Of a stretch of DNA of 64,000 bases, positions 23,684 to 49,062 are shown one piece after another (the stretch's first letter is position 1; each line of letters opens with the position of its first letter). Made by a program: the position numbers and the translations under genes. The notes beneath the pieces were generated by a model, which made no database searches, was not told the DNA's origin, and saw only the letters and a program-made list of their open reading frames with translations. The stretch is from Bacteroidota bacterium (GTDB lineage: Bacteria > Bacteroidota > Bacteroidia > Chitinophagales > Saprospiraceae): positions 4,640 to 68,639 of the forward strand of contig JBCBEC010000022.1 in assembly GCA_038528965.1 (NCBI GenBank), written 5' to 3'.

Positions 23684-25615
23684 ATGAATTTTTTTGTTTT
23701 ACTAGTTGCAATTGATACCTATTCGGACCCTTCCATGTCATTAGCTGGTTGTGTCAATGATTTGAATGCAATGCACAGCTTTTTAATCACTCACCTTGAT
23801 CAATCAAAAAACAAAGTTTTTATTAAAACCCTTATTAATGAGCAAGCAACTCGGAAAAATCTAATTAGCACCTTTGTAGAACATTTTGACCAAGCCAGTA
23901 ATGAGGATTGCTGCTTATTTTACTTTGCTGGTCACGGTTCTAGAATCCCAGCCCCAAGAGGGTTCTATCATCTTTCAAATAATACGAAATTACAATCTAT
24001 TGTTTGCTACGATAGTCGCGCGCATAATGGTTACGATTTAGCGGATAAAGAAATATCTTATTTGATTTGGCAAGTCGTTAAGGATAAGAATATTCATTTT
24101 TTAAACATAATGGATTGTTGTTATTCACATACAAATACACGCAGCGTCGAAAAAATTAGAATGCAAAATCCTGAAAAAAGGTCTCGTCCTAAAGATCTTT
24201 TTATTGGCCATTCATCTTATTATCAAGATGACGCTGGTCATATTAAGGCTCCAGTCGGACGACATATTTCTATATCTGCGTGCAATATTGATGAAACCGC
24301 TAAAGAAATCTCCTGTGCTAATGATCAAACTCGAGGAGCCTTTACCTTTACTTTGCTAAAAACTCTTAGAGAACATGGGCTTCGACATTCCTATTCTAAC
24401 CTAGTACAACGTGTGCGACTCAATTTAAGACTACTAAATATACATCAATCACCACAACTAATGGTTGTTGATAATGCTGATGCTAATAGCTCTTTTTTGT
24501 TGCTAGATGATATAATTGGACACAAGCCTTATTACGTTTACTTTGATCAATGGGAAAAAGAGTGGATGATCAACTGTGGTGAAATTAATGGCATCACTAT
24601 GGGAGAAGCCTCATTTCCGACCCTGTTTACAGTTTTAGAAGGGAAGGTTAAGTTGGAAGTGAAATATATATATCCTGATAGGAGTATTGTAACATCAATG
24701 CCTAAGGGAATCGATAAAGATCGTGTATACACAGCTCATTTACTTCAACAATACTCAGGTAAGCTATCCATAGCTATTGATGAACGTACTAAAGAACCAT
24801 TCAAACAGCAACTAATTGATTTTTTAAGCAAGAGATCTTCAGATTGCTTTCAACTATTCATAGAAGGGAAACTGACTAAATATAAAATTTACCCGACTAC
24901 AAAGGGACTGAATTTAACCAGTGGTAACCGTCATCGAGAATTAATGCAGATCGATAGAAGCTGGGATAAAAGAGGAATTGCCGATCTTATCAATCGCTTA
25001 AATCAAATAGCTATTTGGGAGCAACTCTACAAATTAGAGCGACCGACTAGTACTATTACTCGGCAGCATTATCAAATAAGCATGAACCGAGTGGTTGCTA
25101 TCGACAGTCAGCGCGATAATGCTATGACTGAATTATTGGATATCGATTTCCCGATTGATTTGTCTTATTACCTGCATAACGACCAATGGCAGGAACCTGC
25201 TTTTCAGTTAGAACTCAAAAATACAAGTGACCAACCCTTGTGGTTTGCCGTTATATATCTAGATGACCGGTACGGAATAACTACTCTGAGAGCGAGTGAA
25301 TTAATTGGAGAAGGCGAAGCATCCTACCTGATTAATAGATACAGTGACTTTGACTTTATTACTCACCATGTTTGTGTGGAAGATAGCTATCTGGAGGTTG
25401 GAGTGAACAAGATTAGCGACTATCTGAAAGTAATTATCAGTACTCACCAAATTTCACAAATTATCGAATTTGATCAAACTCCAATGAAGTTTGACACTTA
25501 TATTGAAACATATAAGTCTTCACCGAATCGCCCGCGCATCAAAAGTGATGATTTTACCACTGAGCTGATAGAGCTTCGTATTACACGCCCTTTAACGTCA
25601 TTCCCGACTTCCTGA
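23684..25615 (+). CDS. Caspase-like (peptidase C14) protein with ~400-aa uncharacterised C-terminal domain
   Basis: The N-terminal ~170 aa carry the caspase catalytic dyad in its canonical context: 'CLFYFAGHGS' (His) then 'LNIMDCCYSH' (Cys) about 60 aa later. The rest has no recognisable motifs. Confidence 0.6.
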   Translation: MNFFVLLVAIDTYSDPSMSLAGCVNDLNAMHSFLITHLDQSKNKVFIKTLINEQATRKNLISTFVEHFDQASNEDCCLFYFAGHGSRIPAPRGFYHLSNNTKLQSIVCYDSRAHNGYDLADKEISYLIWQVVKDKNIHFLNIMDCCYSHTNTRSVEKIRMQNPEKRSRPKDLFIGHSSYYQDDAGHIKAPVGRHISISACNIDETAKEISCANDQTRGAFTFTLLKTLREHGLRHSYSNLVQRVRLNLRLLNIHQSPQLMVVDNADANSSFLLLDDIIGHKPYYVYFDQWEKEWMINCGEINGITMGEASFPTLFTVLEGKVKLEVKYIYPDRSIVTSMPKGIDKDRVYTAHLLQQYSGKLSIAIDERTKEPFKQQLIDFLSKRSSDCFQLFIEGKLTKYKIYPTTKGLNLTSGNRHRELMQIDRSWDKRGIADLINRLNQIAIWEQLYKLERPTSTITRQHYQISMNRVVAIDSQRDNAMTELLDIDFPIDLSYYLHNDQWQEPAFQLELKNTSDQPLWFAVIYLDDRYGITTLRASELIGEGEASYLINRYSDFDFITHHVCVEDSYLEVGVNKISDYLKVIISTHQISQIIEFDQTPMKFDTYIETYKSSPNRPRIKSDDFTTELIELRITRPLTSFPTS

Positions 25616-26289: not shown

Positions 26290-28455
26290 ATGAAGTTTCT
26301 ACTGTGTTCTTTGTTATCAATTATAGTTATTGGTAATCCTCTTCTTGGTCAGAGCAATCCCAATGCTGAATTTCTGCAAAAATTATCGGTGGATAGTTTG
26401 GAGAAACGTTTAGCATTTGTGCGAGGCGAAGAAGAAAAAGTTAATATTCTAAACGAATTGGCTTTCAGGTTGCGTTATCGCGAACGAACACAAGCCTTGG
26501 AATACGCCAAGACTGCTTATGGTATAGCTGTGCAGCACGGTTTCATTGAGGGAGAAGGAGATAGTCACATGCGCTTAGGCGTCATTTATAAAAATTTAGG
26601 TCAGCACCAACTGTCTTTAGACCACTATCAGCGGGCAGCTACTATCCGAGTAGAATTAGGAAATGTTGCCGGAGCGGCTCTGGCTTACAGCCAAATGGGA
26701 AAGGCCTCTAAGACACAGGGCAAGATAGAAGAGGCAAAGATGTACTACCAAAGGGGGCTGGACCTATTGGAGCCACCAGATGGATACCTTAAAGAGAAAG
26801 GGAGAATATTGCTTGGCCTTTCTAATCTGTATAGAGACGAGAAAAATTACCGCAAGGCTCTGGAGTTGCTAGAGTCGAGACGAATGATTTCCGAGAAGCT
26901 CGCTGACAAAAAAGGGTTGGCTACCGTTTACTTGCAACAAGGTATTCTCTATGATTACTTGGAAAACCACGGATTGAGTAAGGAGAGCTTTGAAGAAAGT
27001 CTTCAGCTATACGAAGGTTTGAAGGATAGTACTGGGATCGCCAATTGCAACGTCAATTTAGGAAATAATGCTTTTCACCGAGAAAACTACGACGAGGCCC
27101 ATGAATTCTTCCTAACGGCTTTTTCATTATTGCAGTTTCTGAATAAAGATAATCAAGGAGTTTTATTGACCAATTTGGGAGCTACATGCTCAAAGCAAAA
27201 TAATTATGACAAGGCCTTAAGCTATTACGATCAGGCTCTTACTTATTTTGAAGACGGAGAAAATCAGTCACAGCTGGCTTCTATCTACCATCAATTAGGT
27301 GAATTATTCAATGTCCAGGAGAATCACGAACGAGCTATCAGCTACTTAAATAAAGGATTGACAATTGTTGAGCAAATTGATCGTAAAGGGCTAGAGTTAA
27401 AGTTGCGGTTTCAACTCTTTCAAGCCTACACAAAGAGTGGGCAATCGGCTGCTGCAACCTCAGTAATGCAAGGTTATCACCAATTGAGAGACAGTATTGT
27501 CAAAGGCTATGAAGAAGCAACCAACTACAAATTAGATTTAGAAAGGGAAAGAGTTGAGCAAGTGCAAGCCAAGGCAGAGTTCGAACTAGCTACCGCTAGC
27601 TTGAAGAATCGCAATATCACTTATCTATCCGCTTTTTTGATATTGCTACTAGTTTCTTTAAGTGTGGGCATTTATTCTTTTATCAATCAGCAGCGTAAAC
27701 GTGCCGAAATGAGACACCTAGAGACGGAGCAAAAAATAGATCAACTACTGCAAAATCAGGAATTACAGTTTACATATGCTAAGCTCGCTGGTCAAGATAT
27801 GGAAAGGAAAAGAGTTGCACAGGATCTTCATGATCGAGTGGGGAGTACTCTAGCTGCTGTAAAGCTGCATCTCGATAAGATTGAAAAAAGTATAAGTGCT
27901 ATTGAATTTCAAGGCAGACCCATTGAGACAGCTAATCAACTCTTAGACCATGCTTGTAATGAAGTACGAAGTATTTCTCAAAACTTGCAATCTAGTACAA
28001 TCTTAAAGTTTGGACTCTTGTCGCAAGTGAGAAACTTGGTAGACTCTATTAATGCGGCGGACCAACTACAGGTAAAGTTGAATGTTTTTGGTTTCGGAGA
28101 AGAGCGATTGGCTCTCAATAAAGAGATTGAAATCTACCGAATTCTACAGGAACTTTCTAGTAATACTATGAAACATGCCCAGGCCAAAATACTTACAATT
28201 CAGTTAAATAAATTCAAAGATGTACTGAATGTAATCGTAGAAGATGATGGGATAGGATTTATGAAAAGCGAAATCAAAGATAAATCTGGCATGGGACTTC
28301 ATAACGTTCAATCAAGAGTTATTAACCTAAAAGGGAAAATTCTTATTGACTCTGTTAAAGGGAGGGGAACCTCTGTAAGCATTGATCTTCCGTTGTCTGG
28401 TCAGCTATTATCAGATGAAACACAGAGCGAAGATTTGGAAGAAATAATTAACTAA
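26290..28455 (+). CDS. Sensor histidine kinase with signal peptide, periplasmic TPR repeats, one TM, HisKA_3 dimerisation and HATPase_c (NarL-partner type)
   Basis: Signal 'MKFLLCSLLSIIVIGNPLLG'. Numerous TPR-like 'A..Y...G..Y...G.Y..A...Y..AL' repeats. TM 'ITYLSAFLILLLVSLSVGIYSF'. H-box 'AQDLHDRVGSTLAAVKLHL' is HisKA_3. 'IVEDDGIGF...GMGLHNVQSRV' is the ATPase. Confidence 0.75.
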   Translation: MKFLLCSLLSIIVIGNPLLGQSNPNAEFLQKLSVDSLEKRLAFVRGEEEKVNILNELAFRLRYRERTQALEYAKTAYGIAVQHGFIEGEGDSHMRLGVIYKNLGQHQLSLDHYQRAATIRVELGNVAGAALAYSQMGKASKTQGKIEEAKMYYQRGLDLLEPPDGYLKEKGRILLGLSNLYRDEKNYRKALELLESRRMISEKLADKKGLATVYLQQGILYDYLENHGLSKESFEESLQLYEGLKDSTGIANCNVNLGNNAFHRENYDEAHEFFLTAFSLLQFLNKDNQGVLLTNLGATCSKQNNYDKALSYYDQALTYFEDGENQSQLASIYHQLGELFNVQENHERAISYLNKGLTIVEQIDRKGLELKLRFQLFQAYTKSGQSAAATSVMQGYHQLRDSIVKGYEEATNYKLDLERERVEQVQAKAEFELATASLKNRNITYLSAFLILLLVSLSVGIYSFINQQRKRAEMRHLETEQKIDQLLQNQELQFTYAKLAGQDMERKRVAQDLHDRVGSTLAAVKLHLDKIEKSISAIEFQGRPIETANQLLDHACNEVRSISQNLQSSTILKFGLLSQVRNLVDSINAADQLQVKLNVFGFGEERLALNKEIEIYRILQELSSNTMKHAQAKILTIQLNKFKDVLNVIVEDDGIGFMKSEIKDKSGMGLHNVQSRVINLKGKILIDSVKGRGTSVSIDLPLSGQLLSDETQSEDLEEIIN

Positions 28456-28511: not shown

Positions 28512-29141
28512 ATGATTAGGGTTCTGATAGCAGATGATCATCAAATGTTCCTAGATGGGATAGAATCTTTTTTGGATGAAGATCCTAACATTGAGGTCGT
28601 GGCACAAGCGAATAATGGGAATGAAGTTATAGCGAAGTTGAAACAGGTTAAAGTCGATGTGTTGGTTCTTGATATCGACATGGGAACGCCTAATGGTGTT
28701 GATACTGCAGCTATCATTAGGAAGCAGTATCCATCTATAAAAATTCTCATGCTTAGCATGTATAATAGGAGAGAATACCTATTGGAAATAATGAAAATTG
28801 GTGCAATGGGTTATGTGCTTAAGGATAAAAGTAAAGAACAACTTATTCACGCTATCCATCAAGTATATAGAGGTACCGTGTACTATGGGCTGGAGATTCT
28901 AAATGAATTGCAAACAGCCAGACTGGTCAAAGCAACCGATGAGCCAGAGCTAACAGATAGAGAAAAAGACGTGTTAACCGAAATTGGTAATGGCTTATCG
29001 ACTAAACAGATTTCTAAAAAACTTGAAATTGAAGAAACAACTGTGAATACGCACAAACGTAACTTAAGACACAAATTGGAGGCAGATAACGAAAAGCACT
29101 TAGTACGGTACGCAATCAAGCATGGGTATTCGAAGCTTTGA
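28512..29141 (+). CDS. NarL/FixJ (LuxR)-family response regulator
   Basis: REC 'MIRVLIADDHQMF...VLVLDIDMG' plus C-terminal LuxR HTH 'LTDREKDVLTEIGNGLSTKQISKKLEIEETTVNTHKRNLRHKL'. Confidence 0.85.
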   Translation: MIRVLIADDHQMFLDGIESFLDEDPNIEVVAQANNGNEVIAKLKQVKVDVLVLDIDMGTPNGVDTAAIIRKQYPSIKILMLSMYNRREYLLEIMKIGAMGYVLKDKSKEQLIHAIHQVYRGTVYYGLEILNELQTARLVKATDEPELTDREKDVLTEIGNGLSTKQISKKLEIEETTVNTHKRNLRHKLEADNEKHLVRYAIKHGYSKL

Positions 29142-29199: not shown

Positions 29200-30729
29200 A
29201 TGCCAGATTTTGCCAACGGAAGATCTCGTGGTATTTCTCAGCAGTTTGCTGAAAAATATACTAGAGTGTCAAAAAGTAAGAACTATATATTGGGAATAGG
29301 TATCGATAACTATCAATATCTCAGGAGACTCCACAATGCTGTATTGGATGTGGACAGTATTTTGTCTGTATTGGTCAAGCAGTATCAATTTCAAAATGCA
29401 GAGATCACTAAAATTTACAATGAAAAATGCACCCGGAGTAATATTCTCCGTCAGTTGAGATATTTAGTTCAGCGGGTAAAAGAAACTGACAATCTCATCA
29501 TTTATTATTCGGGACATGGCATATTTGATGAACAACTAATGGAGGGTTATTGGGTGCCAGTTGATGCTCGATCTAAGGAAGAAACTATCGGTGAGTATAT
29601 AAGTAACGCTGACATCCAAAAACACCTTAGCCGTATAAAAAGTCGGCATACAATCCTATTTAATGATAGTTGTTTTTCAGGATCGATCTTTGGCGTTGAT
29701 AGAAATATTCAACAAGAGAAGCAGGAGGTATTACCATCAAGGTGGGCCTTTACTTCTGGCCGTAAGGAAGTTGTACAAGATGGTGTCCCTGGAGAGCACA
29801 GTCCGTTTGCTAAGAGTATCCTTAGAGTTTTGGAAGAGAACCGAAGGGAAAAACTATTCTTATCAGAACTTGTGAATTTGGTAACACTGGATGTAGATCG
29901 AAATACCAATCAAACCCCGAGGGGTAGTTACTTACAGAACACGGGCGACCGTGGAGGAAATTTCGCCTTTTACTCACGAGATCAAGAAGAAAGGTTTTGG
30001 AAAAAGCAATTGAGTCAGCCATCTCCTGAAGGACTCATTGCTTATCAACGCTATTATCCGTTGGGAAGCTATATAAATGAATCTGTTGACCGAATAAAAC
30101 GCTTGGTTCCTCCCGGAAAAGGATTAAATCCACTAGGACGCCCAGTATATACCCAAAGTGAAGTCACTGAAGTGTCTTCCAATCAAGATTGGCAGTGGTT
30201 AGTCCCGATTCAAAAAACAAGCTCAGCCACATCGTGGTCGCTGACGCAACTAGAAACATTTCTGAATAGCTCGGACTATCGAAAAGCCGACATAGAAACC
30301 TCTGCTATTATATTGAAATATAGTGGTTTGAAGTCGAGTGATTGGATGGGTGAGTCAGATGTTGCCTTGTTACCAAAGCTCCTTGTTGAAGAGTTGAGTA
30401 TGCTATGGGAGAATTATTCTGATGGGCGTTTTGGCTTCCGAAAACAGTATAGCATTTGGAAATATCTCGAAGAGACGGGAGGCAAAAATGCTAATAAGTC
30501 TTTACTCTTTGAAGAGTTCTCTCAACGGGTGGGATGGGCTACCACTACAAATGCAGAACTTATTTACGACTATGAGCAATTGCAATTCTCGCTGGATGCA
30601 CCAGAAGGGCATTTTCCGACGCTCCGGTTCGCTCACGCTACAAGCGATTTAGGTATTGGCTGGGGTAAGTATTGGGAGTCAATATTTTATAGTCTGATTA
30701 ACCGAATTGAAGCACTCATAAAAAAATAA
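29200..30729 (+). CDS. Caspase-like (peptidase C14) domain fused to a C-terminal GUN4-like domain
   Basis: Dyad 'LIIYYSGHGI' and 'ILFNDSCFSGS'. The C-terminal region 'SDGRFGFRKQYSIWK...FSQRVGWA' resembles the conserved GUN4 core (GRFGFS..Q..IW....F...VGW). Confidence 0.55.
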   Translation: MPDFANGRSRGISQQFAEKYTRVSKSKNYILGIGIDNYQYLRRLHNAVLDVDSILSVLVKQYQFQNAEITKIYNEKCTRSNILRQLRYLVQRVKETDNLIIYYSGHGIFDEQLMEGYWVPVDARSKEETIGEYISNADIQKHLSRIKSRHTILFNDSCFSGSIFGVDRNIQQEKQEVLPSRWAFTSGRKEVVQDGVPGEHSPFAKSILRVLEENRREKLFLSELVNLVTLDVDRNTNQTPRGSYLQNTGDRGGNFAFYSRDQEERFWKKQLSQPSPEGLIAYQRYYPLGSYINESVDRIKRLVPPGKGLNPLGRPVYTQSEVTEVSSNQDWQWLVPIQKTSSATSWSLTQLETFLNSSDYRKADIETSAIILKYSGLKSSDWMGESDVALLPKLLVEELSMLWENYSDGRFGFRKQYSIWKYLEETGGKNANKSLLFEEFSQRVGWATTTNAELIYDYEQLQFSLDAPEGHFPTLRFAHATSDLGIGWGKYWESIFYSLINRIEALIKK

Positions 30730-33547: not shown

Positions 33548-34918
33548 GTGTTTTCCAGAGTAATTAAGATCGATGATATCATTGCTGTTTCGGTGATTCT
33601 TGGCGGAGTCGTATTTCTCGTTTTTCGGGAAATGAGTCTTGGTATTCTCTCTTCTGGCCTTTTTATGGGAATCAGTCTCCTTATTAAATTCAGTGCTCGT
33701 AGGAAGAGCCTAGTCTTGGATTCAAATGCTGATTTTGCCGACGTTGAAGCAAGAGATATTTCAAGCTTTACAAGTTTTGTTTGTGAACTTGCAGGCGTAG
33801 ATCCATTACCCTTGAAGCAATACTTTCCGTATGAAATATCTAAGTACTTTGCTCTTGGGATGACAATCGTATTCACGGGAATTCTTGCTGCGGTTTCGGG
33901 AGGATATGCGATTTACAAAATATTTGATAACATCTATGCTAGTCTTTTGGTAGGGGTGCTTTGGGGGGCTTTAGTTGCTAATATTGATAGGGTAATGGTG
34001 ATGTCTATATCGAAATATCATTCACTTTTGGGGCAATTTATTCGTGCAATTCCTAGGATTCTGTTAGCTATCATCATTGCACTAGTGATCTCTAAGCCGA
34101 TTGAAGTTCGTTTTTTTGAAAACCGACTTCGAGCTGATCTAACTAAAATGAAAAGCCTTATTGATAGTACTAATATTAATAAGGCAACTAGTACTTTCAG
34201 GGTGGATGAAACTAGTCGTAGTCGTTCAATAGCACTGCAGGAAGTAAATGACATTAGGCAACAGCAACCCGATATTCCTGCTTTATTAAGCGATGAATTA
34301 GCCTTACAGCAAGGGGAATATAACCGGATAAGTCGAGATGTGCGATTTATCAGAAGCGAGCTACTCAAGCTACGAGGGGCTGATTCTCTTGGAAGGCAAC
34401 AGTATTCTAAAGTTCAAAATGAAATAGCCGACTATCAAGAGAGGTTAGGCCGTGAAGAGATAAGGCTTGGTAAGATAAATGATAGAATACTACAGATTCA
34501 AACCGAAGTTAAAGACATAATAAGCGCATTTAGAATTGATAATGAAAAAAAACTGACTGAAGCATCGCGTAGATTAGATTATTATGAAAAGGAAAAGTTC
34601 CGAATAGATTCTCTATTGAGCGGAGAAATAGGAACCATAAAAGCCAATAGTGCAGCTTTGTTTTCTAAAGGGACTTTTATGCTGGAGTTATTACTTTTAG
34701 AAGATTTAAAAAGGGAGGATAAATCGATTTTCTGGGTAAGTCTAGCTATATCACTATTGATGATCGCTGTAGAGACTATGCCAATTTTTGCTAAGCTATT
34801 GGCCCCAGCTGGGAGTTATGATTATTACCAAAAGTTTTTAACTGATCGTGTTAAAGCAGAAGCCAAAAGGCGCATCGAAGAATCTTGGCAACCACGACCC
34901 GACGAGGAGGAAGAATGA
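33548..34918 (+). CDS. Multi-TM membrane protein with long coiled-coil (DUF4407-like)
   Basis: Four N-terminal hydrophobic helices including 'LLVGVLWGALVANIDRVMVM', then ~250 aa of coiled coil and a C-terminal TM. Confidence 0.5.
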   Translation: MFSRVIKIDDIIAVSVILGGVVFLVFREMSLGILSSGLFMGISLLIKFSARRKSLVLDSNADFADVEARDISSFTSFVCELAGVDPLPLKQYFPYEISKYFALGMTIVFTGILAAVSGGYAIYKIFDNIYASLLVGVLWGALVANIDRVMVMSISKYHSLLGQFIRAIPRILLAIIIALVISKPIEVRFFENRLRADLTKMKSLIDSTNINKATSTFRVDETSRSRSIALQEVNDIRQQQPDIPALLSDELALQQGEYNRISRDVRFIRSELLKLRGADSLGRQQYSKVQNEIADYQERLGREEIRLGKINDRILQIQTEVKDIISAFRIDNEKKLTEASRRLDYYEKEKFRIDSLLSGEIGTIKANSAALFSKGTFMLELLLLEDLKREDKSIFWVSLAISLLMIAVETMPIFAKLLAPAGSYDYYQKFLTDRVKAEAKRRIEESWQPRPDEEEE

Positions 34919-35069: not shown

Positions 35070-37196
35070 ATGGAAGGTAATGGTCAATTGGAGAAGGGAT
35101 TTTTAGCGGATGCCGCTATGCTCCACGATAAATTTAATCGGCTAGAACGTTGTTTTGAGGTTGCTGCTGATTACATTGAAAATAGCGAGGATATAGCATT
35201 ACTTTTTGCCAGTAGCGATAATCGGGCTTTGATCAATTCACTAGCAGAACCTGAATTTCAGGTAGGGATTGCGGGCTGGTATTCTGCTGGGAAATCGACG
35301 CTTATAAATGCAATTTTCAAAAAGAAGAAATTCTTGCCAGAAGGGACTGCTCCAACTACAGCTTTTCCAACCTTTATCAGGAAATCTACTAATGGGAAGG
35401 AGCGTGCAAAAGTGACCTATCTTAGTGAATCAGATCGTAATAACTTAAAGCGAGAGTACGTCACTAATATTTTTGAAACATTAGCCTTGCCTAAAAATCA
35501 TCTAGAGCAACTGCTAGCATTACCGAATAAAGAAATGTTAGCAGGACTGGAAAAAATGATCGCTAGTAAAGGGGGAGAAAAGGCCCACAATAATTCTTTA
35601 CAGTGTCTGAAAGTACTCATCAAGCACTATGAGTCCGAACTTGACACGAACCCTGATCCTGTACCTATCGATAAGGCGTTACAAATTGATGAGAGTCATG
35701 ACAATAGTACAATCATTAAGCAAGTAGACATCTACCTAAATGATTTGCCCTATGATGACTATGTTGTTTTAGTAGATCTGCCGGGATTAGGCTCTAACAA
35801 CATTCGTCATGAACAGATTACTCGAGATATTGCTTTTCAGAGTGCTACTAAGTCTTTTGTTTTTGTATTTGCTGCCACGGGTACGGCTAACGGGGAATTA
35901 GAGGATTTTATTATAAGTTTAAACAATGAAAAGCTACCAATAAGCGATTCTTTTTGGGTGATTAATAAATGGACTGAGCAAGCTGCTAGTGAGCAAGTTC
36001 AAGAAAATTTTTTCCGGGATTGGCGTAAACGACAAGTAAAGATTCAGTCGGACCGCTTTTTTACTATCCCATACAGTGAACAGTTATTGGAAGATCCCAA
36101 TTTTGTGCGAAAGGTAGAGCTTTTCAAAGAACAGCTCTTTAGTTTTCTAATGCGGCAGGCCCAACGTGAATTTCTGGGTAAAGCAGAAAATCTGTACCAG
36201 CGCATTTCCAGTAAGATCGGTACAGCTTTGGTAAAAACAGAGCTACCAAAGAATGTGGACGATGATGTCTATATTTTCAACGAGAGTTCAAAATATTTTG
36301 ACCACTGGATCTCATTATTAGAATTCACCATTGATAGCGCATTAAAAAAGGCTTTCAAGAATGCAGATCTACCGGCATTCGACTTGCTCAAAACACCTGA
36401 TATAGAACAAATTGGAGTAGAAATTGAGCAGCAGTTTGACCTAGACGAGGCGGCGGAATTGGTTTTACTATCACGGCTGGTCAAACAAAGTGTTAATACT
36501 CCAGATTTTGTCAATATCTTGAGGGAAGTGCTGAATAAAGTAGACCCTGCCCAACTAGTGCGGGAACATTTGCAAAGTGATACTGCGCAAGCACTCATTC
36601 ACGAACTGTTCCAGCCTTTTACCGCTCTGACCAACCAAACCATAGCCATTGGTAGTAAGCAGCTTCCATTGTCAGACTTTATTCACAGAAGACTAGAAGA
36701 AATCATTAATGTGAATAGTATCCTATTCCGTATTGACGGAGTTGTGGACGCAGTGTACGTTCAGGTAGTCGATGAACTCATTGTTTTCTTAGCAGAGAAA
36801 TTCTTAACGGAGTTTATTAATGGTTCTACAACAGAAGCAACTGACAATACAAATACGACTCCGGCCATTTCCTCTGGGGTATATGAAGAGCGTACTAAGG
36901 CTATACTACAGGAAATACCTCGTTACATTGTTCGCTACCTTAAAGACAAACAGACTAATGTTAATCTACAACTCCGTAATACCCAACAAACCCACTTTAA
37001 ATACGTCAAATCACGCTTAGATCAACTTCTGAGAGAAGAAAGTTTTCGATCTACTGTTCGTATGATGATCATGGAAATCGTTAGGGCTGATGCCGCCCAT
37101 TATCTTGATTTAGACGATGCCAAGAAAAAAATTGATGCCATCCACGAACTCCAAAGCCTGGTGGCAAAGCGGGAACCTAACTTATCTCACACCTAA
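35070..37196 (+). CDS. Bacterial dynamin-like GTPase
   Basis: G1 'GIAGWYSAGKSTLINAIF', G2 region 'TAPTTAFPT', G3 'VLVDLPGLGS' (the dynamin DLPG), G4-like 'VINKWTE'. The 708-aa length with a long helical stalk is typical of BDLP/DynA-type proteins. Confidence 0.7.
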   Translation: MEGNGQLEKGFLADAAMLHDKFNRLERCFEVAADYIENSEDIALLFASSDNRALINSLAEPEFQVGIAGWYSAGKSTLINAIFKKKKFLPEGTAPTTAFPTFIRKSTNGKERAKVTYLSESDRNNLKREYVTNIFETLALPKNHLEQLLALPNKEMLAGLEKMIASKGGEKAHNNSLQCLKVLIKHYESELDTNPDPVPIDKALQIDESHDNSTIIKQVDIYLNDLPYDDYVVLVDLPGLGSNNIRHEQITRDIAFQSATKSFVFVFAATGTANGELEDFIISLNNEKLPISDSFWVINKWTEQAASEQVQENFFRDWRKRQVKIQSDRFFTIPYSEQLLEDPNFVRKVELFKEQLFSFLMRQAQREFLGKAENLYQRISSKIGTALVKTELPKNVDDDVYIFNESSKYFDHWISLLEFTIDSALKKAFKNADLPAFDLLKTPDIEQIGVEIEQQFDLDEAAELVLLSRLVKQSVNTPDFVNILREVLNKVDPAQLVREHLQSDTAQALIHELFQPFTALTNQTIAIGSKQLPLSDFIHRRLEEIINVNSILFRIDGVVDAVYVQVVDELIVFLAEKFLTEFINGSTTEATDNTNTTPAISSGVYEERTKAILQEIPRYIVRYLKDKQTNVNLQLRNTQQTHFKYVKSRLDQLLREESFRSTVRMMIMEIVRADAAHYLDLDDAKKKIDAIHELQSLVAKREPNLSHT

Positions 37197-37209
37197 AAAA
37201 ATAACACTT

Positions 37210-38106
37210 ATGTGGGTATGCAGTAATGATGCCACTCATCAGTTTCCAGAACGGACTGAAGATGGGTTTTGTCCGCATTGCAGTTTTCGGGGTACGCTAA
37301 TTCCCGAAGCCATCGACAAATTAGATGATCAACCGCAAGGAACAGTACCCAAAGGAGAGCAGGGGGAACAAAGAGATGTAGGCCTTTGCATTTTGTTGAT
37401 GGATGCTTCAGGTTCTATGTCAGAAAAACCATTTTCCAATGCTGAGTCTACTAAGGCAGAGTTGATTGCACGCTCAGCAGCTCGCGGCATCTTTGATCTA
37501 GAAAGCATGACCATGACTCAGAATGCTTACCTCTGTATTATCATGTTCGATGCTAACGTGAAGCAGATTGCTTTCGACACTGTATCTAATCTACTCAGAA
37601 AACACCACCGGGATCCTATTCGCTTTGAGCAGTTTTTACTGTCTAAACTGAAAGAAATGGGAGGAATGACTGATTTAAACAAGGCTTTACTAGCCGCCGA
37701 AGCACTAGCGAATAAGTTCTTGAACAAGTCTATTCCCTCTTTTCAGGACTACACAGTCATGAAGCATCGTATTATGAAAAAGGATGCGAAAACCATCAGT
37801 GTGCCCAATGTCCGTGTACTCCTCTACACAGATGGACATCACAATGCCACTGGAGAGGTTGTGGTAAACCCATTTCAGGGACAATCACCAGACTTACTAA
37901 TGGGAGCCTATTTTGGAGCAGCCTCAGATAAGGGCAATCAGCAATTAACGGCTATCCTAAGTGAATGCCCAGTACACGAAGGTGTTTTGCAACATTTCTT
38001 GTTTGATGACCCGACCAATGTGGGCTCCTTGCGTCATTTATTTAGGATGGCCTCTAACACTTCCGGTTTTTGTCCCAAGTGTATGAATATATCGGCAAGT
38101 GTATGA
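37210..38106 (+). CDS. von Willebrand factor A (vWA) domain protein with N-terminal zinc-ribbon
   Basis: N-terminal 'WVCSNDATHQ...FCPHCSF' is a Cys4-like ribbon. The MIDAS motif 'ILLMDASGSMSE' plus downstream 'LYTDGHHN' make up the vWA fold. It starts 14 nt after the dynamin-like gene. The ORF-track start at 37117 lies inside that gene and is rejected. Confidence 0.65.
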   Translation: MWVCSNDATHQFPERTEDGFCPHCSFRGTLIPEAIDKLDDQPQGTVPKGEQGEQRDVGLCILLMDASGSMSEKPFSNAESTKAELIARSAARGIFDLESMTMTQNAYLCIIMFDANVKQIAFDTVSNLLRKHHRDPIRFEQFLLSKLKEMGGMTDLNKALLAAEALANKFLNKSIPSFQDYTVMKHRIMKKDAKTISVPNVRVLLYTDGHHNATGEVVVNPFQGQSPDLLMGAYFGAASDKGNQQLTAILSECPVHEGVLQHFLFDDPTNVGSLRHLFRMASNTSGFCPKCMNISASV

Positions 38107-39791
38107 GAAAGCTATTATTTTTCCTCCCGCTGTGTATAAGCACAATTGGTACTGTGACGGCTCAAGCATACTACCAACTCCAATTGGATTATCAGACTGA
38201 TGTTTGGGTATATGAATACCTAGTGGGTAAGGATACCATTTATCTTCATCACAACGAGATCTTTTTAGCAAAAGAAGAAGAGCAAAGACAGGATACTATC
38301 TGCCTGCAATTTGCTCAAGAGTTTATCTGTATACCCGATAGCCTACTGAAGGAAATACACCCGAGATTATCGGCTACTGAATTTCGTGTTGACATAGATA
38401 CAATACAAGTTGGTGATGAAATTCATTTAGACTTCAGCGACATCCTCAGTGAAAGAACTCCTACCATCTGGATTTTACCTTACGGCGAGAGAAGTGCCTG
38501 GAAACGGTCATATAATGGCAGTAAAAGCTGCAATCTGACCAATACTCCATCTTGTAGAATATGGGCAAGGGGACTACCCTCTCTGTTCTATGAAAATGAC
38601 TCCCTTTTTATTCCGAAGACGGAAACAGTAAGCGTAGATTCAAATAGCCTAATTGAGCAGGAGCACCTTGAGCATCAATTGAACGCAACTCAGATTATCG
38701 TAAGCGACCTAGAAAAAGCATTGGAACAGAAAGAAAATCAGAGTAAAAAAGAACATCTTTTCTTCGTCTTACTTCTAGCGACCTCACTGTTTGGCTGTTA
38801 TTTTTTGTTTCAAAAAGTGGATCAACTCCGTATAGTCAATCGTGACCTACAGGCAGTAATAGCGGGGGTAAAGACTAATTATAGTAAAGAAATCCTTAAA
38901 CCGATAGCATTAACAGAACAAGTAACTTCAAAACGAACTTTCGGTATGGAAATACTTGTTTCGGCAGGCCCCCGAAAAATGTTCAGTACCGAGGATAATG
39001 ATCTTGACTTGGGAGAAGATATTGGGGGGTGCCTGCAGTTAGGCGATAGGCTATATTTCTGGGTGTTAGATGGGACGAGTCAGAGTGCTATTTTGCGCAA
39101 TTCCAAGCAAGAAGATCTGTTTTCGAGCCGCTATCTAGCGCAAAGTATTGCGGCTTTTCTTCAACAATCACTCCGACGTACTAATGGCCAATTACCAGTA
39201 CGTACTGCCTTGCTGGAGAGTATTGAAGGGGTTCGTCAGGAGTGGGAAAAAAACATCAACGCCTTGACGGAAGAGCGCAAAACAAAGATTCTCAATTTCT
39301 TAATTGACAATATTCACGCAACCTGTTCAACAACCGTACTGGTGGGGTGCCTAACTCTGGAGGGAGAACTGAAGTGCTGCCGTATTGGCGATTCCTTCCT
39401 GTTTGCCTACGACAAAAATGATGGTCTCGTACCCTCTGCTCTCTCCACCAAACCTGGAACCGAGCGCTATGATCGCCAATTTTTCCGATTACAGCGCACA
39501 ATTGGGGAAGACCAGGTAAAAGTTGTTAGCAATGAAATACAGCCTGAGTTTTGGTCCATTACGGATATTCAAAGGGTAGTTGTTGTTTCCGATGGAGTGG
39601 GAATATCAACCCGTACTTGGTTGAAGCATCTAGACGCCCTAAATAATCCGCAGAACTACCGATCAATTGTCGGTAAGATCCCGCAAGCAACCCAGGATGA
39701 CAAAACCTTTTTAATAGTGGAGATTATAGAACAACCCAACGAATCAGAATCGCTAAAGGTAGAACCTAATCATGAAAGTCAGGATATTTGA
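38103..39791 (+). CDS. Membrane-associated PP2C/SpoIIE-like serine/threonine phosphatase-domain protein
   Basis: Start taken at 'MRKLLFFLPLCISTIGTVTAQA' (signal). Its ATG overlaps the vWA stop (ATGA). There is a mid-protein TM 'LFFVLLLATSLFGCYFLF'. The C-terminal 'YFWVLDGTSQSA...VVVVSDGVG' resembles the PP2C metal-binding DG/SDG motifs. Confidence 0.5.
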   Translation: MRKLLFFLPLCISTIGTVTAQAYYQLQLDYQTDVWVYEYLVGKDTIYLHHNEIFLAKEEEQRQDTICLQFAQEFICIPDSLLKEIHPRLSATEFRVDIDTIQVGDEIHLDFSDILSERTPTIWILPYGERSAWKRSYNGSKSCNLTNTPSCRIWARGLPSLFYENDSLFIPKTETVSVDSNSLIEQEHLEHQLNATQIIVSDLEKALEQKENQSKKEHLFFVLLLATSLFGCYFLFQKVDQLRIVNRDLQAVIAGVKTNYSKEILKPIALTEQVTSKRTFGMEILVSAGPRKMFSTEDNDLDLGEDIGGCLQLGDRLYFWVLDGTSQSAILRNSKQEDLFSSRYLAQSIAAFLQQSLRRTNGQLPVRTALLESIEGVRQEWEKNINALTEERKTKILNFLIDNIHATCSTTVLVGCLTLEGELKCCRIGDSFLFAYDKNDGLVPSALSTKPGTERYDRQFFRLQRTIGEDQVKVVSNEIQPEFWSITDIQRVVVVSDGVGISTRTWLKHLDALNNPQNYRSIVGKIPQATQDDKTFLIVEIIEQPNESESLKVEPNHESQDI

Positions 39792-41007
39792 TAAAGAATA
39801 CAACTACACTTCTGATTACACTACGAATAGCGATAATTGGAAATTTCAGAACCGCGATGATTTTACGATTACGCCTGTCAAAATTGGCGGATACCCCTGC
39901 TTTATCAAGCGCTTTGAGCAGGAGCCACCGGGTATTAGCGGATTAAAACTATTAAGAGGTAAGTTTATCGAGAACCTGCCCATTGTGCATGATGTAGTGA
40001 CGGATCAGGAAGATAATAGGCCAGTCACCTATTTGTTTTTAGAATATCATCCTGGAAGGACCTTGACGGAACAGTTGCGAGAAGGCCTAGAAATTAGGCC
40101 ACAGGTTTTAGTAGAAGATTTGTATCAGGCACTCGCTGACTTGCACGAACTGGGTTTCTGGCATACTGATTTTTGCGAAAAAAATATCTACTATTCTTCG
40201 CGTGCCAAGCGATTCATAATCATTGACCTGGATAGTATAGAACACGTTTCTAATCTGCCAACACCTATTCCCCATGAGCCAGGTGGTTTACTAAATCAGG
40301 ATTTCGCCATCGTAGCTAGAAGTTTTCTCAACGAGTACATAGGCACCGACCACAAGTTGAACAAAGATCTATCTGGAGTGACGTTAAATTACTTTCAATT
40401 ACTCGTGCTGATCGCTAAACTTGGCTTTTATATCGAGCAAAAGCAATTGAATACAACCTTTAAGTATACTCTTAGTAATTTCGATGATTTGCACCATTAC
40501 ATGCACCATAAAGTATCAAAACCTGGCCAAGCCATTTTTAAAGCGGGAATCGCTCGGGAAGGAGGGAAACTGAGACGCAAAGAAGTGTTAGCTTTTGCGG
40601 ATGAAATACTTCCGTTAGGTACAGTATACATTCTATCAACGCGTAATCGGAAGGAAGTGATCTCCTCTCCTCAGATTCTATCTTTTTTAGCCAATGGTCA
40701 AAGCGGTAGAGTTAAGGTTCGGAGAGGTAAAAAAATACGAATATCCTGGAGTGTAAAATACGCTGATGAAGTACAATTCAATGAACAGGCTTATCACCAA
40801 TTGTGTCATCACATTAATATACCCGTACAACAGAATATGGAGCTGAATCTAATGGTAACGGGGACTGTAAATGGTGAATCCATTACGAATAAACAAACGA
40901 TTGTCGTGGAGATCAAACTTCCCTCAACTGGTACTTACTTATTGATCTTTTGTACCGTATTCATCCTGTTATTAATACTTTGGCTAGTTTTTTCTCCAAT
41001 AATTTAG
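39772..41007 (+). CDS. Ser/Thr protein-kinase-like protein with C-terminal TM anchor
   Basis: Catalytic-loop-like 'HTDFCEKNIYY' (HxDxxxxN) followed by 'IIIDLDS' (a DFG-equivalent). C-terminal hydrophobic 'LLIFCTVFILLLILWLVF'. Overlaps the upstream gene by 20 nt. Confidence 0.5.
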   Translation: MKVRIFDKEYNYTSDYTTNSDNWKFQNRDDFTITPVKIGGYPCFIKRFEQEPPGISGLKLLRGKFIENLPIVHDVVTDQEDNRPVTYLFLEYHPGRTLTEQLREGLEIRPQVLVEDLYQALADLHELGFWHTDFCEKNIYYSSRAKRFIIIDLDSIEHVSNLPTPIPHEPGGLLNQDFAIVARSFLNEYIGTDHKLNKDLSGVTLNYFQLLVLIAKLGFYIEQKQLNTTFKYTLSNFDDLHHYMHHKVSKPGQAIFKAGIAREGGKLRRKEVLAFADEILPLGTVYILSTRNRKEVISSPQILSFLANGQSGRVKVRRGKKIRISWSVKYADEVQFNEQAYHQLCHHINIPVQQNMELNLMVTGTVNGESITNKQTIVVEIKLPSTGTYLLIFCTVFILLLILWLVFSPII

Positions 41008-41014: not shown

Positions 41015-44000
41015 ATGTCCAATCAACTTCTACAACCTTATTTTTCCAGGCACCTTGCTTTTTTGATTGGTGTTCAGGAGTATCAATATCTGAATGACTT
41101 GGAAACGCCGCTTAATGACGTGCACGATTTAGCGGAAGTGCTGAAAAAAGAGCATGGATTTCAAGTAGAAAATCCCTTACTTAACCCTGATAAAGCGAGC
41201 TTAGAAGCATATATCCGAGATTATATTCCCCAAAAGGTAAAAGAGGAAAAAAATGATCGAGTCGTAATTTATTTTGCGGGTCACGGAGAAGCGGATATAA
41301 ATGAGGAGGGTTCGCCACAAGGCTACCTCCTACCCTCTGATGCGCTCTCTGGTAATACAAGTAGTTCTGTTCCCATGTCGCTGCTGCACAGTGTAGTAGA
41401 AGCTTTACCATGCCAACACCTACTACTTATTCTTGACTGTTGCTTTGCTGGTGCTTTCCAGTGGGATGTCAAGAAACGTGGATATTCTAAATCTCAAATG
41501 GGGAATAGATTATTTCGCGCTTATTTTGCTAGGAATGCTGAGAAAAAAGCCCGACAGGTCATTGTGTCCACCGGTGATGACCAGAAAGCAGTAGACATTT
41601 TGGACCGCCGTTTAGATCGGAATTCCCCCTTTGCTGCTGGTCTTATCAAGGGTCTACAGGGACTGGCTGATAATCCCAAAAATGGTTTTATATCGATAAG
41701 TAAGCTGGTAGGCTATGTGGATACATCATTGGAGGTAACGCTTTCAGGTAATGGTGAAGTAATCAGGCAAAAAGCTTTTGCGTATACGCTAAATAATCAT
41801 GAGCACGGAGAATTTTTCTTCTGCTCTCCATATACTAAAATCAGCCTTTGGGATGATGATTATCGTATTAATCCTTTTAAGGGCTGGGCGGCTTATGAAG
41901 AGGCTGACGCCTATCGTTTCTATGGAAGAGACGAAGACATGGAGCAGTTACTGGATACACTAGAGCAACATAAATATACCTTTCTACATGGTAGTACTTA
42001 CACTGGGAAAAAATCTGTAGTTACAGCGGGACTATTACCGGAGCTCAAGAGTCGTAATCTATCAGTATGCCGATTAATAGTAGGACAAATTGATCAGGTG
42101 GAGTTCGTTAAGCAGATCGAGAGGTATCATCGTGTTATAGTTATTTGCCCATCAGATGTTCATCTGCAAGTCGCTCGGGAAAACATTAAAACGGTGTTGG
42201 AGGCAACAGCCAAGCGTAGTGATATCCATGTTTTGTGCTGTGCAGATACGCATTTGTACGAGCAATTGCCTATAGGCGATTGGGCTAAGTTTGGCCCTAT
42301 TGAAAGCCTGAAACTAAAATCACTCACGCGCCTATCACTGCGAGATATGATTGAAAACCCACTGGTTTTCAGGGGCTTTGGCTTTGAACCGGCTAAACTA
42401 CCCGAGATTATACTGGAGGAGTTACGACCTACTCTAGCACCGCTACCCCTTTTATCTGCGACGATGCACGCTACGTTCCAAGACTTTATTGCAGAAGGCC
42501 GGCCCACCCGCATGATTACCCTGCAAAATTTCCAGCGAACAGGCGGTGTACAAGGGGTTTTTATTAAACAGTTTAAGACGGCGCTAGAGCAGCTAGACTC
42601 AGATGCCAGGCAGTGGGTAATGCTACTTTTAAGTCGTTTCATACAGCAAAGTGACCATCTTGTGCTAAGCCGGGACGTACAATTGCAGGAGCTAGAGTAT
42701 GAAGACCCAACAATTACAACACACATACTCGCCCTACTGGACCATCTACACAAGGCGGGTGTACTATTTCGGAAGAGGAATACTTACCAATTTGCCTATC
42801 CGCTTCCTATCAGTAGCTGGCCACCCTTGCAGACCTGGTTGCTGTCTATTGGTCAGGATAAAATTGATCTGCAACGCGAATTGTGGCTTGCTACTACTAA
42901 ATATGAGCGTTCAAAGCAAAATGAAGTTCGGATAGTAGGAAAGGAGAATAGCGAAACCGCTGAAGGCCTTTGGGGGTCACACTTAGAGCTTGCTAAGGCG
43001 CTTACACTTATGCATAGTCAACCGTACTTTTTCAATTCACAGGAAAAAGCATTTTTGACAGAGAGCCAAGCACAAAGAGAGAGCATATTAGTAGAAAAAT
43101 CTCTAGTCGGAGCAAAAAGTATAGCAAAGCATAGTCCAAATTTTGCTTTGCGGCTGTTGGAAAACTTGCACCGTAAACACCCTAAGAAAAAGTCTATCCT
43201 GAACGCTCTGGAAGAGTTGCTTTCTAACAGTTTGTTCTATGGGGTATTTGCTAACCCGCCAGTCACAAGTGAAGCCAAGCAATTTTGTTTTCATCCCTCG
43301 GGAAAATATCTTTTCCTGCTTAAAGATCAATTCTTAGAAGTAGTCAATTGGATCACGGGTCAGAAAAATACCCTTTCGCTATCTACTGCTCCCATCCAGA
43401 TGCAAGCTTATCGAGAAGCCGAAGCAATCTTGCTCTTGCTACCTGGGAAGTTACACTGTTTAGATGCAATGCTGGCTACCGAATGGACTAAGGAAATACC
43501 AGAAGATATTACGAGCTTCGCAATCGGTGAGACTACTGGTCATGTATATTTAATGAGTCAATTGGGGGTAGTATCTTGGATAACTACTGAAGGAGGAGTT
43601 TATGGGCAACAGACTATCGAGGCCCTCAAAGTAGGAAAGTTTCTTCAGGTAGACCCGAAGGAAGAATACTTGCTTATGGGAGGGCAAGTAGGAGCAAGCG
43701 TAGCCCATGGTCAGCTGGGGTTATTCCTAATTAAGGACGGACATTCTAGATGGGCACTTCAGCAGAAAAAAAAGATAAACCTCTTGCAAAAGTTATCTAC
43801 TCGAAATATTGGTTTACAGGCTATTGCCTTTTCACCTGATAGCCAAATAATTGCCGTAGGGCTAGGTAGTGAACAGATCATTTTTTCACGTACTAAGAAA
43901 AAATACGGAGAAGTCGTTTTGTATGATCTCTCTGGCCAACAATTAGCACTTTTAGAAGGATTTAAGGGAAATGTTTTAGCGCTAGCCTGGAGTTCTCACG

Positions 44001-45905: not shown

Positions 45906-46952
45906 CTATGGCCTTTCTCGTAGTTTCTTTTTCACAAAGTTGACGAAAGCCCCATCTGCCTTTTCTGGGTTAAATCCATTCATAAGCTCATATGAAAACT
46001 GCGTGTGTAAGTTATCAAAGGACCAAGCCGTTCCTGATTGTTCGACCATCTGTCTCACCTTTTGTAGGGTTTCTGGCTTGATACTTGGAAGGTCCTTTAG
46101 CTTCATGACCGGTCTAAGTAAGCCAAATTCTACCTTGTCCTGTTCGTTTAATCGTAGCCAATAATCGGGTAAATGATCGTCCTTCTCGATCTGGCGAATG
46201 AAGTAGCGGAACTTCTTCAGCGAAGAAGTAGAACCAGTCTTTTCTTTGAGCTTTGTTAGCGAAATACTCCAGCTTTCCTGTTTGCCACAGTGCTTTCGAG
46301 CAATCTCATACAAGCGTCGCTCTAGCGCTTTTCCGAGCCAAAAATAACGACGACTTATAGTGAGTACCTCTTTACCGATGATAGAATTGAAGAACCATTC
46401 GGATAGGGTGATTTCCAAGCGGAGCATCCGGTTTTTTACCCTACTGCTTTCAATGATTTCGTAACTATCAATCAGACCAAAAGCGGAAGTGATTTCTCGT
46501 TTATCGGTCTTAATATTCGTTTTGATACTTACCCCTTGTAAGCGATCTAATGCCTTTTTGAGGAGGCCGTAGCCTTTGCCATTGGTTGGGCGGTTTGTAG
46601 CTACTAGGAGATCGTGACTGGATATTCTTAGTGTTCGTTTTGGTGTATTTCCTCTATTGATTGCATCCATAAGTAAAGACGCACAGTAGAGCAATACGTC
46701 TTTATCGAAAATAGTGGGTAGGCCCAATACGCTAGGAGCTATTCGTAAGGTGCTAGTACCATTGGTGTATTCCAATGTCCTAACATCCCGATTTTTGGAT
46801 AGCGAGAAAATGGGATGTTCCATTGAAGCAATGTCATCCTTAAGCGGCAGATTGTCAAAAATATCGGCGATGAAGAAGTCCTTGGTGGGGTGCCTTTCTG
46901 GAGCGAGTGTTGGCTTTACGGGCTTTAATTCTAGTGATTGCTGCATAGTCAT
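45906..46952 (-). CDS. repA: Replication initiator protein (RepA-family of Bacteroidetes plasmids/mobilisable elements)
   Basis: N-terminal 'FFIADIFDNLPLKDDIASMEHPIFSLSK' is characteristic of the replication-initiator-A family. Iteron-like direct repeats lie immediately upstream. Confidence 0.55.
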   Translation of the reverse strand: MTMQQSLELKPVKPTLAPERHPTKDFFIADIFDNLPLKDDIASMEHPIFSLSKNRDVRTLEYTNGTSTLRIAPSVLGLPTIFDKDVLLYCASLLMDAINRGNTPKRTLRISSHDLLVATNRPTNGKGYGLLKKALDRLQGVSIKTNIKTDKREITSAFGLIDSYEIIESSRVKNRMLRLEITLSEWFFNSIIGKEVLTISRRYFWLGKALERRLYEIARKHCGKQESWSISLTKLKEKTGSTSSLKKFRYFIRQIEKDDHLPDYWLRLNEQDKVEFGLLRPVMKLKDLPSIKPETLQKVRQMVEQSGTAWSFDNLHTQFSYELMNGFNPEKADGAFVNFVKKKLRERP

Positions 46953-46954
46953 TC

Positions 46955-49042: not shown

Positions 49043-49062
49043 TTTTTTCTTTTCAACAGCAC

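Follow-up and report, generated by a model that had tools for sequence, protein, structure and literature searches.

The locus considered here lies on contig JBCBEC010000022.1 of a Bacteroidota metagenome-assembled genome (MAG; assembly GCA_038528965.1), of which a stretch of 64,000 nucleotides, hereafter called the window, was analysed. Three genes of the same strand follow one another in it: gene 1, encoding a caspase-like protease domain joined through a linker to a GUN4-like domain, gene 2, encoding a putative SPFH/Band_7 protein with long N-terminal tandem repeats, and gene 3, encoding a DUF4407 membrane protein (Table 1). With moderate confidence we propose that gene 1 codes for the effector in a conserved cassette of three genes, in which the GUN4-like domain would tie the protease to the SPFH/DUF4407 membrane module.

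Table 1. Positions of gene 1, its parts and the two genes that follow it in the window (ORF, open reading frame; pLDDT, predicted local distance difference test)
Feature	Position	Strand	Basis or remark
Gene 1, caspase-GUN4-like protein	29200..30729	+	ATG-start ORF, 509 aa; Pfam Peptidase_C14 and GUN4
Caspase/metacaspase-fold protease domain	29281..29973	+	Residues ~28-258; Pfam, Foldseek, conserved dyad
Three-helix module	29977..30105	+	Residues ~260-302; helices 260-272, 276-285 and 292-302, pLDDT ~90
Disordered linker, protease to GUN4-like domain	30154..30231	+	Residues ~319-344; pLDDT <50 in both models
GUN4-like domain	30232..30726	+	Residues ~345-509; Pfam GUN4, PDB phmmer, Foldseek
Signature G470-H-F-P-T-L-R476	30607..30627	+	Stands in place of the LxNxLR motif of true GUN4
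Gene 2, putative repeat-SPFH/Band_7 protein, 843 aa	30735..33266	+	Homology to Band_7-positive partners
Gene 3, DUF4407 multi-pass membrane protein with coiled coil	33548..34918	+	Pfam DUF4407, E=1.7e-48

In the N-terminal half of gene 1, residues 31-240 match the Pfam family Peptidase_C14 (PF00656; E=4.3e-19, 69.6 bits against a gathering cut-off of 21.4), and the best PDB matches found by Foldseek, all with probability 1.0, are metacaspase 9, MALT1 and Yca1, which gives the caspase-hemoglobinase fold. The His-Cys dyad is complete, with His106 in an SGHG motif (nt 29515-29517) and Cys158 in a DSCFSG motif (nt 29671-29673). Both residues are invariant in the homologues of this caspase (121/121), and in the homologue alignment gene 1 keeps every caspase-family position that is conserved at a level of at least 95%. 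The domain is predicted to be a catalytically competent cysteine protease of the orthocaspase type, and the similarity of its D-S-C-x-S-G motif to that of the Arg/Lys-specific metacaspases would predict a corresponding P1 specificity. A sequence scan of gene 1 gave no hydrophobic or transmembrane segment, and its product is predicted to be cytoplasmic. Residues 246-345 have BLAST matches to 47 caspase homologues across about 57 aa, the three-helix module also being found in Bacteroidota caspases whose C-terminal domains are different. The full-length AlphaFold2 (AF2) model has a pLDDT of 85.6 and consists of the caspase (28-258), the three-helix module (260-302), the linker (319-344) and the GUN4-like domain; its input alignment (A9) included bridging two-domain proteins and was checked to be correct in both halves.

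In the C-terminal half, residues 343-476 match the Pfam family GUN4 (PF05419; E=2.3e-24, 86.6 bits against a gathering cut-off of 29.2), and a phmmer search of the PDB with this domain gives 4ykb, 7e2r and 1y6i. The AF2 model of the C-region (residues 301-509, 77 GUN4-domain homologues) has a pLDDT of 83, with the core above 90 and with residues 301-340 disordered. Foldseek finds 14 significant PDB matches for it, all of which are GUN4 structures (4xkb, 7e2r, 7e2t, 4xkc, 1y6i, 4ykb and 1z3x/y; probability 1.00, template-modelling (TM) score on target up to 0.78), while the first non-GUN4 match has E>1. The domain has the same all-helical 'cupped hand' fold as the Mg-chelatase cofactor GUN4/Ycf53 (SynGUN4 1y6i/4xkb, CrGUN4 4ykb and AtGUN4 7e2r; TM score on target 0.75-0.78), keeps all near-invariant GUN4 positions and shares the core motifs ADxET, LW..S..FGF..Q, VGW and AP.GH.P. 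Unlike GUN4/Ycf53, it lacks the LxNxLR motif, has a conserved Arg where GUN4 has Asn211, is joined to a protease and ends in an extra long helix (482-508) that extends past the Pfam core; only about 20-22% of the aligned positions are identical, and there is no chlorophyll-synthesis context, no chlorophyll-synthesis gene having been seen in the 64-kb window. These results bear out the initial annotation, which had described a caspase-like domain fused to a GUN4-like domain and had held that the lack of a significant match to the GUN4 hidden Markov model, or a predicted fold unrelated to GUN4, would speak against it; since both the match and the GUN4 fold are observed, neither objection applies. 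The GUN4-core pattern that it had pointed out is present as well (GRFGFRKQYSIW at residues 409-420 and FSQRVGW at 440-446), except that the stretch it had drawn between IW and F is not literally four residues long.

Gene 2 begins 5 bp past gene 1, and a terminator scan gave no terminator-like site on the + strand at the gene 1/gene 2 setting; a sigma-70 promoter scan, the consensus of which differs from Bacteroidota promoters, gave fewer matches than shuffled sequences. The gene 2 product has one N-terminal transmembrane helix (1-19), about five tandem repeats of the pattern 'IGxV...GGxxGxQ...LxxGxYxIN', a putative divergent SPFH/Band_7 region and a coiled coil. Its homologues, with identities of 30-47%, exceed the Band_7 cut-off, and the region aligned with gene 2 coincides with Band_7. 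All the tested SPFH partners in other loci are above this threshold, some adding a C-terminal VWA domain or a zinc ribbon. The homology extends to the partners in locus L007 (E=2e-52), in L090 (E=6e-39), in L003, L004 and L002 (E=1e-64 to 1e-112) and to cyanobacterial partners (E down to 5e-195). Gene 3 has 5-6 hydrophobic segments, with its start codon uncertain (GTG at 33548).

The coupling of these genes recurs elsewhere. The pair of gene 1 and the SPFH homologue is present at 20 loci in total, which come from cyanobacteria, the window MAG, a Streptomyces megaplasmid and metagenomes. Among the nearest GUN4 relatives, a gene 2 homologue lies directly downstream in L002, L003, L004, L007, L009, L114 and L115, and L005 is the sole such locus with usable downstream sequence but without one; the partners of these nearest relatives match gene 2 with E from 1e-44 to 1e-126. 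By protein, the gene 2 homologue of these relatives follows caspase-GUN4 (P0129, P0187), Trypsin_2-GUN4 (P0156), CHAT-GUN4 (P0176), EAD1-GUN4 (P0276) and TIR-GUN4 (P0171), and behind P0125, in which an N-terminus of unknown type precedes GUN4, come a Band_7 protein of 859 aa and, after it, DUF4407. On the Streptomyces clavuligerus megaplasmid, as found by tblastn of plasmids, a TIR_2-GUN4 gene is followed after a gap of 33 bp by a gene annotated as 'SPFH domain-containing protein', the product of which is homologous to gene 2 (E=6e-39). The order seen in the window, with the SPFH homologue and then DUF4407 on the same strand, is continued to the third gene also in L003 (E=3e-47 to gene 3), L100, L102 and L107; DUF4407 is often the third gene at loci whose sequence reaches far enough. 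At the TIR-GUN4/SPFH locus L115, which has 57% guanine plus cytosine (GC), the third gene (9201-11015) encodes a 604-aa protein with a transmembrane segment and a coiled coil that is not detectably DUF4407 and that may be an analogous replacement of gene 3. The 57% GC of both L114 and L115 and their neighbour gene of Planctomycetota type give no more than a hint of their source.

The GUN4-like domains coupled to SPFH share the signature G-H-x-P-[ST]-[LF]-R...W-x3-W, which gene 1 carries as GHFPTLR at 470-476 with W492. Its Arg, which falls in the column of SynGUN4 N211, is invariant in eight aligned domains and is present in 17 of the 18 SPFH-coupled domains of a wider set. By searching GTDB genomes with a degenerate DNA pattern for the signature, 18 cyanobacterial GUN4 loci were recovered, 11 of which have the SPFH homologue directly downstream, with DUF4407 next in three; two non-cyanobacterial matches of the pattern have no GUN4 domain and were set aside as chance. 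A scan of the GTDB genomes with the SPFH alignment found no relatives.

While the GUN4-like domain is constant, the N-terminal part of gene 1 is not. It is a caspase in the window, L002, L104 and L114, CHAT in L007 and L112, Trypsin_2 in L004 and L105, TIR_2 in L090 and L115, EAD1 in L009 and L094, a GxSxG hydrolase-like domain in L095 and a short coiled coil in others. Further variants of cassette gene 1 are those of L097, L100, L101, L102, L106 and L107. The L095 version (1619-2992, Caldora sp. SIO3E6) has a GxSxG alpha/beta-hydrolase-like, lipase-like N-terminus that matches the PADLOC model DUF626_VIII with E=2e-25, and in several Nostocales versions the N-terminus is only a coiled coil of about 100 aa, possibly a new adaptor module. 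The three-gene cassette is apparently undescribed and mainly cyanobacterial, with the window as its Bacteroidota, caspase-armed member; in the literature no GUN4-SPFH or DUF4407 system was found described.

Now we consider whether the GUN4-like domain binds a tetrapyrrole. It was reported that Arg214 of SynGUN4 is 'absolutely essential' for porphyrin binding (PMC1084334) and that bilin binding requires Asn211 of the LxNxLR motif, with paralogues lacking the motif predicted not to bind (PMC10156173). At the positions of SynGUN4 L209, N211, L213 and R214, gene 1 has T474, R476, A478 and H479, so that none of the four LxNxLR residues by which true GUN4 orthologues are recognised is kept; in the HMMER alignment to 1y6i, R476 pairs with N211 and the similarity is then lost. 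By the criteria of the authors of both studies, such a paralogue is predicted not to bind canonically. The Mg-porphyrin-specific positions Ser125/Gln126 and Val162 also differ in gene 1 (K, S and K, respectively), the change of Val162 to Lys being unique to gene 1 among the domains compared. As far as can be judged from sequence, the C-domain is a GUN4-fold paralogue from which the canonical ligand contacts are gone.

It could still be argued that gene 1 is a stand-alone metabolite-sensing protease, in which a tetrapyrrole (porphyrin, heme or bilin) bound by the GUN4 domain allosterically gates the caspase, an idea with published precedent (PMC7159879; bioRxiv 2022.07.19.500537), since the same gating was put forward by Kaur et al. 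for the GUN4 fusions in cyanobacteria (PMC7159879). The fold is a genuine GUN4 fold, heme is on hand in non-phototrophs, the conserved R476 beside the ligand site could bind a carboxylate, and the hydrophobic 'greasy palm' is conserved in the 18 SPFH-coupled domains, with W150 and W183 in all of them (18/18) and F158, F160 and W167 mostly kept. However, Arg214 is replaced by His479 and Asn211 by Arg476, both sets of authors would predict no canonical binding for such a paralogue, and the Mg-porphyrin-specific positions have changed too. Moreover, the domain is present in non-phototrophs (the window MAG and Streptomyces), and a soluble metabolite sensor leaves the linkage to SPFH and DUF4407 unexplained. 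We thus consider this explanation unlikely, and the suggestion of the initial annotation that porphyrin-like sensing controls the protease does not fare well with neither Arg214 nor Asn211 retained. The genomic context, which the initial annotation did not take into account, points to a multi-gene membrane-associated system rather than to a stand-alone metabolite-gated protease.

With regard to origin, a HMMER search of 1.84 billion cluster representatives gave 2,797 proteins with a related domain, none above about 40% identity, while a word-indexed homologue search with the C-domain alone gave no matches. In the 95 nearest relatives the associated domains are caspase (13), protein kinase (13), TIR_2 (9), Macro (3), CHAT (2) and trypsin (2), plus EAD1/EAD8. 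All the named matches of the GUN4 profile search are cyanobacterial. This agrees with Kaur et al. (2020, PMC7159879), who stated that GUN4 'originated in the cyanobacteria', is cyanobacteria-specific, has kinases, caspases, trypsin and TIR as fusion partners there and is probably a sensor of tetrapyrroles, and it upholds the remark of the initial annotation that the domain is unusual in a non-photosynthetic member of the Bacteroidetes. The caspase-GUN4 fusion itself is not new, because cyanobacterial proteins of this kind already appear in catalogues of 2010 and 2012 (Jiang et al., PMC2853523; Asplund-Samuelsson et al., PMC3501461). The cyanobacterial orthocaspases of this kind (PMC2853523; PMC3501461; Klemencic & Funk 2017, PMC5756287) likewise have a Peptidase_C14 domain of the p20 type with the His-Cys dyad, followed by a GUN4-like domain, and at least one of them (Symploca, L104) is in the same SPFH cassette as the window gene; the papers on them do not have the SPFH/DUF4407 linkage, and the window differs in its Bacteroidota host and Bacteroidota caspase clade.

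That the window is from Bacteroidota follows from three things: the NCBI label 'Bacteroidota bacterium' on the MAG (GCA_038526485.1) that holds an identical partial gene 1 protein, a cargo protein of the type IX secretion system with a CHU_C signal, and the identities of the caspase half. This half is 45-48% identical to Bacteroidota caspases with WD40, FGE-sulfatase or TPR tails and only about 26% identical to other caspase-GUN4 proteins (P0149, P0165 and P0169), so that it falls outside the cyanobacterial caspase-GUN4 clade; the sole exception is the metagenomic P0129, with 37% and 36% identity to gene 1 in the two halves. It thus appears that in gene 1 a caspase module of Bacteroidota was combined with a GUN4-like module brought in from elsewhere, which suggests independent assembly or effector replacement for the Bacteroidota caspase-GUN4 gene.

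From the cassette and its neighbourhood we infer a conflict-system function, a docking or sensor role of the GUN4-like domain and a trigger, as described below. A constant domain combined with interchangeable modules, a patchy occurrence across phyla and a location on plasmids or near transposases are hallmarks of conflict systems, and a further hallmark is the position of the window copy in a low-GC island with two more caspases, STAND, PP2C and a dynamin-like GTPase, beside RepA, TrwC and TraG. SPFH assemblies cage or regulate proteases, as in HflK/C-FtsH and stomatin-NfeD, and it is for this reason that we propose the GUN4-like domain as the part docking or regulating the caspase at SPFH/DUF4407. 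Gene 1 would then consist of a swappable N-terminal effector or adaptor and the GUN4-like domain as the constant module, with gene 2 providing a membrane-anchored repeat-SPFH/Band_7 protein and gene 3 a DUF4407 membrane protein. The GUN4-like domain would dock the caspase to the oligomeric SPFH/DUF4407 membrane assembly, or would regulate the effector there, and the flexible linker of about 25 residues is consistent with a tethered effector. The trigger might be a cue from the membrane or from an infection, perhaps a hydrophobic ligand that binds in the 'greasy palm' pocket still present, and this cue would release or activate the protease, leading to a cell-suicide or immunity-type response. 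In a wider form that we put forward only tentatively, the signature GUN4-like domain would be an adaptor tethering interchangeable death effectors to an SPFH cage plus DUF4407, not a tetrapyrrole sensor, and the cassettes would make up an unrecognised family of membrane-surveillance immunity or suicide systems, which would have reached Bacteroidota and Actinomycetota from cyanobacteria.

It is useful to compare the cassette with two groups of known systems. The vWA-MoxR (VMAP) ternary systems and related NTP-dependent conflict systems found in multicellular bacteria (Kaur, Burroughs, Iyer and Aravind 2020/2021; PMC7159879, PMC8195603) show the same swapping of effectors (caspase, trypsin, TIR and EAD adaptors), and some cassette relatives resemble them in having a partner with a C-terminal VWA fused to SPFH, or a gene 1 with EAD1. 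The papers on these systems list GUN4 and Band7-like domains as components, with Band7 given once and separately and with no GUN4-SPFH(-DUF4407) pair, and the three genes of the window cassette, unlike VMAP, have no VWA, MoxR or STAND NTPase; none of the genes between 23.6 and 45.2 kb of the window has a VWA or MoxR domain. In the HflK/C-FtsH and stomatin-NfeD/STOPP operons, a membrane-anchored SPFH oligomer is likewise encoded beside a protease that it presumably controls. The window cassette differs from them in that the protease is soluble, caspase-type and linked via the GUN4-like domain, that the SPFH protein has long N-terminal tandem repeats, and that the catalytic module is exchangeable for non-protease effectors.

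Several results weigh against the proposed conflict cassette. In seven of the 18 cyanobacterial signature loci no SPFH partner is present within 8 kb. At 80 distant SPFH-repeat loci from soil metagenomes there is no GUN4, DUF4407 or caspase neighbour and a different small partner is found instead, so the gene 2-type SPFH protein is not dedicated to GUN4-like proteins. Gene 2 itself has no Pfam match even at E<=10 and is assigned to SPFH by transitive homology only. In PADLOC the SPFH and DUF4407 partners match no known or candidate defence-system model, and the GUN4-like domain has no match in 50,697 phage records. Finally, the palm positions double as fold core, and their conservation can neither affirm nor exclude the binding of a ligand. 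On the supporting side, the GUN4 controls without an SPFH partner are a TIR-GUN4 of Calothrix (L008) and three loci on cyanobacterial plasmids, which adjoin AAA/NACHT-type genes; together with the differently paired soil relatives, they lead to the conclusion that the coupling is specific to one branch.

The soil loci (L010-L089) deserve mention in their own right. Their repeat-SPFH proteins have 640-770 aa and 25-28% identity to gene 2, and in 70 of 72 cases a conserved protein of about 200 aa, a small membrane protein with one transmembrane helix and a helical domain, is encoded upstream. The two genes seem to form a module of their own, which is likewise undescribed. The small upstream partner was considered as possibly GUN4-like and was rejected, the hhalign probability being 0.1%.

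With PADLOC v2, the only matches in the cassette are generic 'caspase' ones and the kinase-GUN4 sub-model PDLC04062. The latter, matched by the C-domain with E=4e-20, would nominally link gene 1 to PD-T4-6, a validated defence kinase of E. coli, and would imply a GUN4-like tail on that kinase. This link is rejected: PDLC04062 is the cyanobacterial kinase+GUN4 type among about 25 sub-models, and the cyanobacterial kinase+GUN4 protein P0127 matches it full-length (2.5e-130). For PD-T4-6, only a Ser/Thr kinase was described by Vassallo et al. (2022), and the 'PD-T4-6' matches of S. thermophilus are PASTA-type kinases.

A different explanation is that the locus serves housekeeping membrane proteostasis, with an SPFH scaffold, a dedicated protease and the GUN4-like domain as a scaffold-binding module having no role in conflict. 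It draws on the classical SPFH-protease partnerships (HflK/C-FtsH, stomatin-NfeD), on the membrane nature of the gene 2 and gene 3 products and on the fact that three of the N-terminal modules (caspase, CHAT and trypsin) are proteases. However, the N-terminus can also be TIR, an EAD1 adaptor, lipase-like or a coiled coil, which fits conflict and not quality control; the distribution is patchy, with many copies on plasmids or close to transposases (the Streptomyces megaplasmid; IS66 in L003); and the low-GC island that holds the window copy also has other caspase and STAND genes and adjoins a conjugative element. We thus regard a purely housekeeping role as quite improbable. That the fusion is fortuitous or decaying after horizontal transfer, with no current function, is hardly credible: it is true that only one other protein (P0129) combines the same caspase subtype with GUN4, that even among 1.84 billion representatives no relative exceeds 40% identity and that the Val162-to-Lys change is unique to the window, but the 509-codon ORF is intact, the caspase positions conserved at 95% or more and the near-invariant GUN4 positions are kept, the models are confident, and the three-gene order is retained with the 5-bp spacing.

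For 15 years the GUN4 fusions to caspases, kinases and TIR have been read as cyanobacteria-restricted sensors of chlorophyll precursors, and the window locus alters this view. It brings out a well-defined GUN4-like subgroup that has lost the tetrapyrrole/bilin-binding residues, is present in non-phototrophs and is locked in an operon with SPFH and DUF4407 while its effector is freely exchanged. With the cassette proposed above there is now a specific candidate, open to testing, for a new conflict system associated with the membrane; if true, DUF4407 and the giant repeat-SPFH proteins, as a family, would each have a function assigned for the first time. The case also cautions against carrying the 'tetrapyrrole-binding' annotation over to every member of PF05419.

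It remains to describe the neighbourhood in the window. Upstream of gene 1 lie, all on the + strand, a second caspase-family gene (23684-25615; 643 aa, Peptidase_C14 at residues 5-260 with E=8e-19, then a C-terminal region of about 380 aa without a Pfam match) and, after it, a two-component pair made up of a TPR-HisKA_3 histidine kinase (26290-28455) and a LuxR/GerE response regulator (28512-29141). The pair ends 58 bp upstream of gene 1 on the same strand and could regulate the cassette; it is not conserved beside the cassette in other loci. Directly after the DUF4407 gene comes a dynamin-family GTPase (35070-37196, +; 708 aa, Dynamin_N with E=2e-16 and weak LeoA/DynA-like matches), next a 329-aa protein with no family match (37117-38106), which was not found beside the cassette elsewhere, and then a PP2C phosphatase (38070-39791) and a kinase-like protein (39772-41007), ahead of the third caspase gene (41015-45229, +), which encodes a 1,404-aa caspase-nSTAND1 NTPase-WD40 protein of the classic apoptosis-like STAND architecture. 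The dynamin-like GTPase, the PP2C, the kinase-like gene, the two-component system and the two other caspases were considered as parts of the cassette and were rejected as such, not being conserved beside it elsewhere.

Conjugative-element genes span 45906-56217 of the window, with a RepA-like initiator (PF10134; 45906-46952, -), a Toprim primase-like gene (48047-49042), a TrwC relaxase-helicase (51676-54501, -) and a TraG/TraD coupling protein (54730-56217). The GC fraction falls from about 0.47-0.53 over 1-14 kb to 0.37-0.42 over 16-46 kb, which together with the conjugation genes suggests that the caspase island belongs to an integrated mobile element or borders on one. At the other end of the window, the CHU_C-bearing protein mentioned above is a PKD-repeat protein with a type IX secretion signal, a Bacteroidota marker (45-1211, +), and next to it a 1,009-aa ORF without a Pfam match (2117-5146, +) lies in the highest-GC and strongly AT-skewed part of the window.

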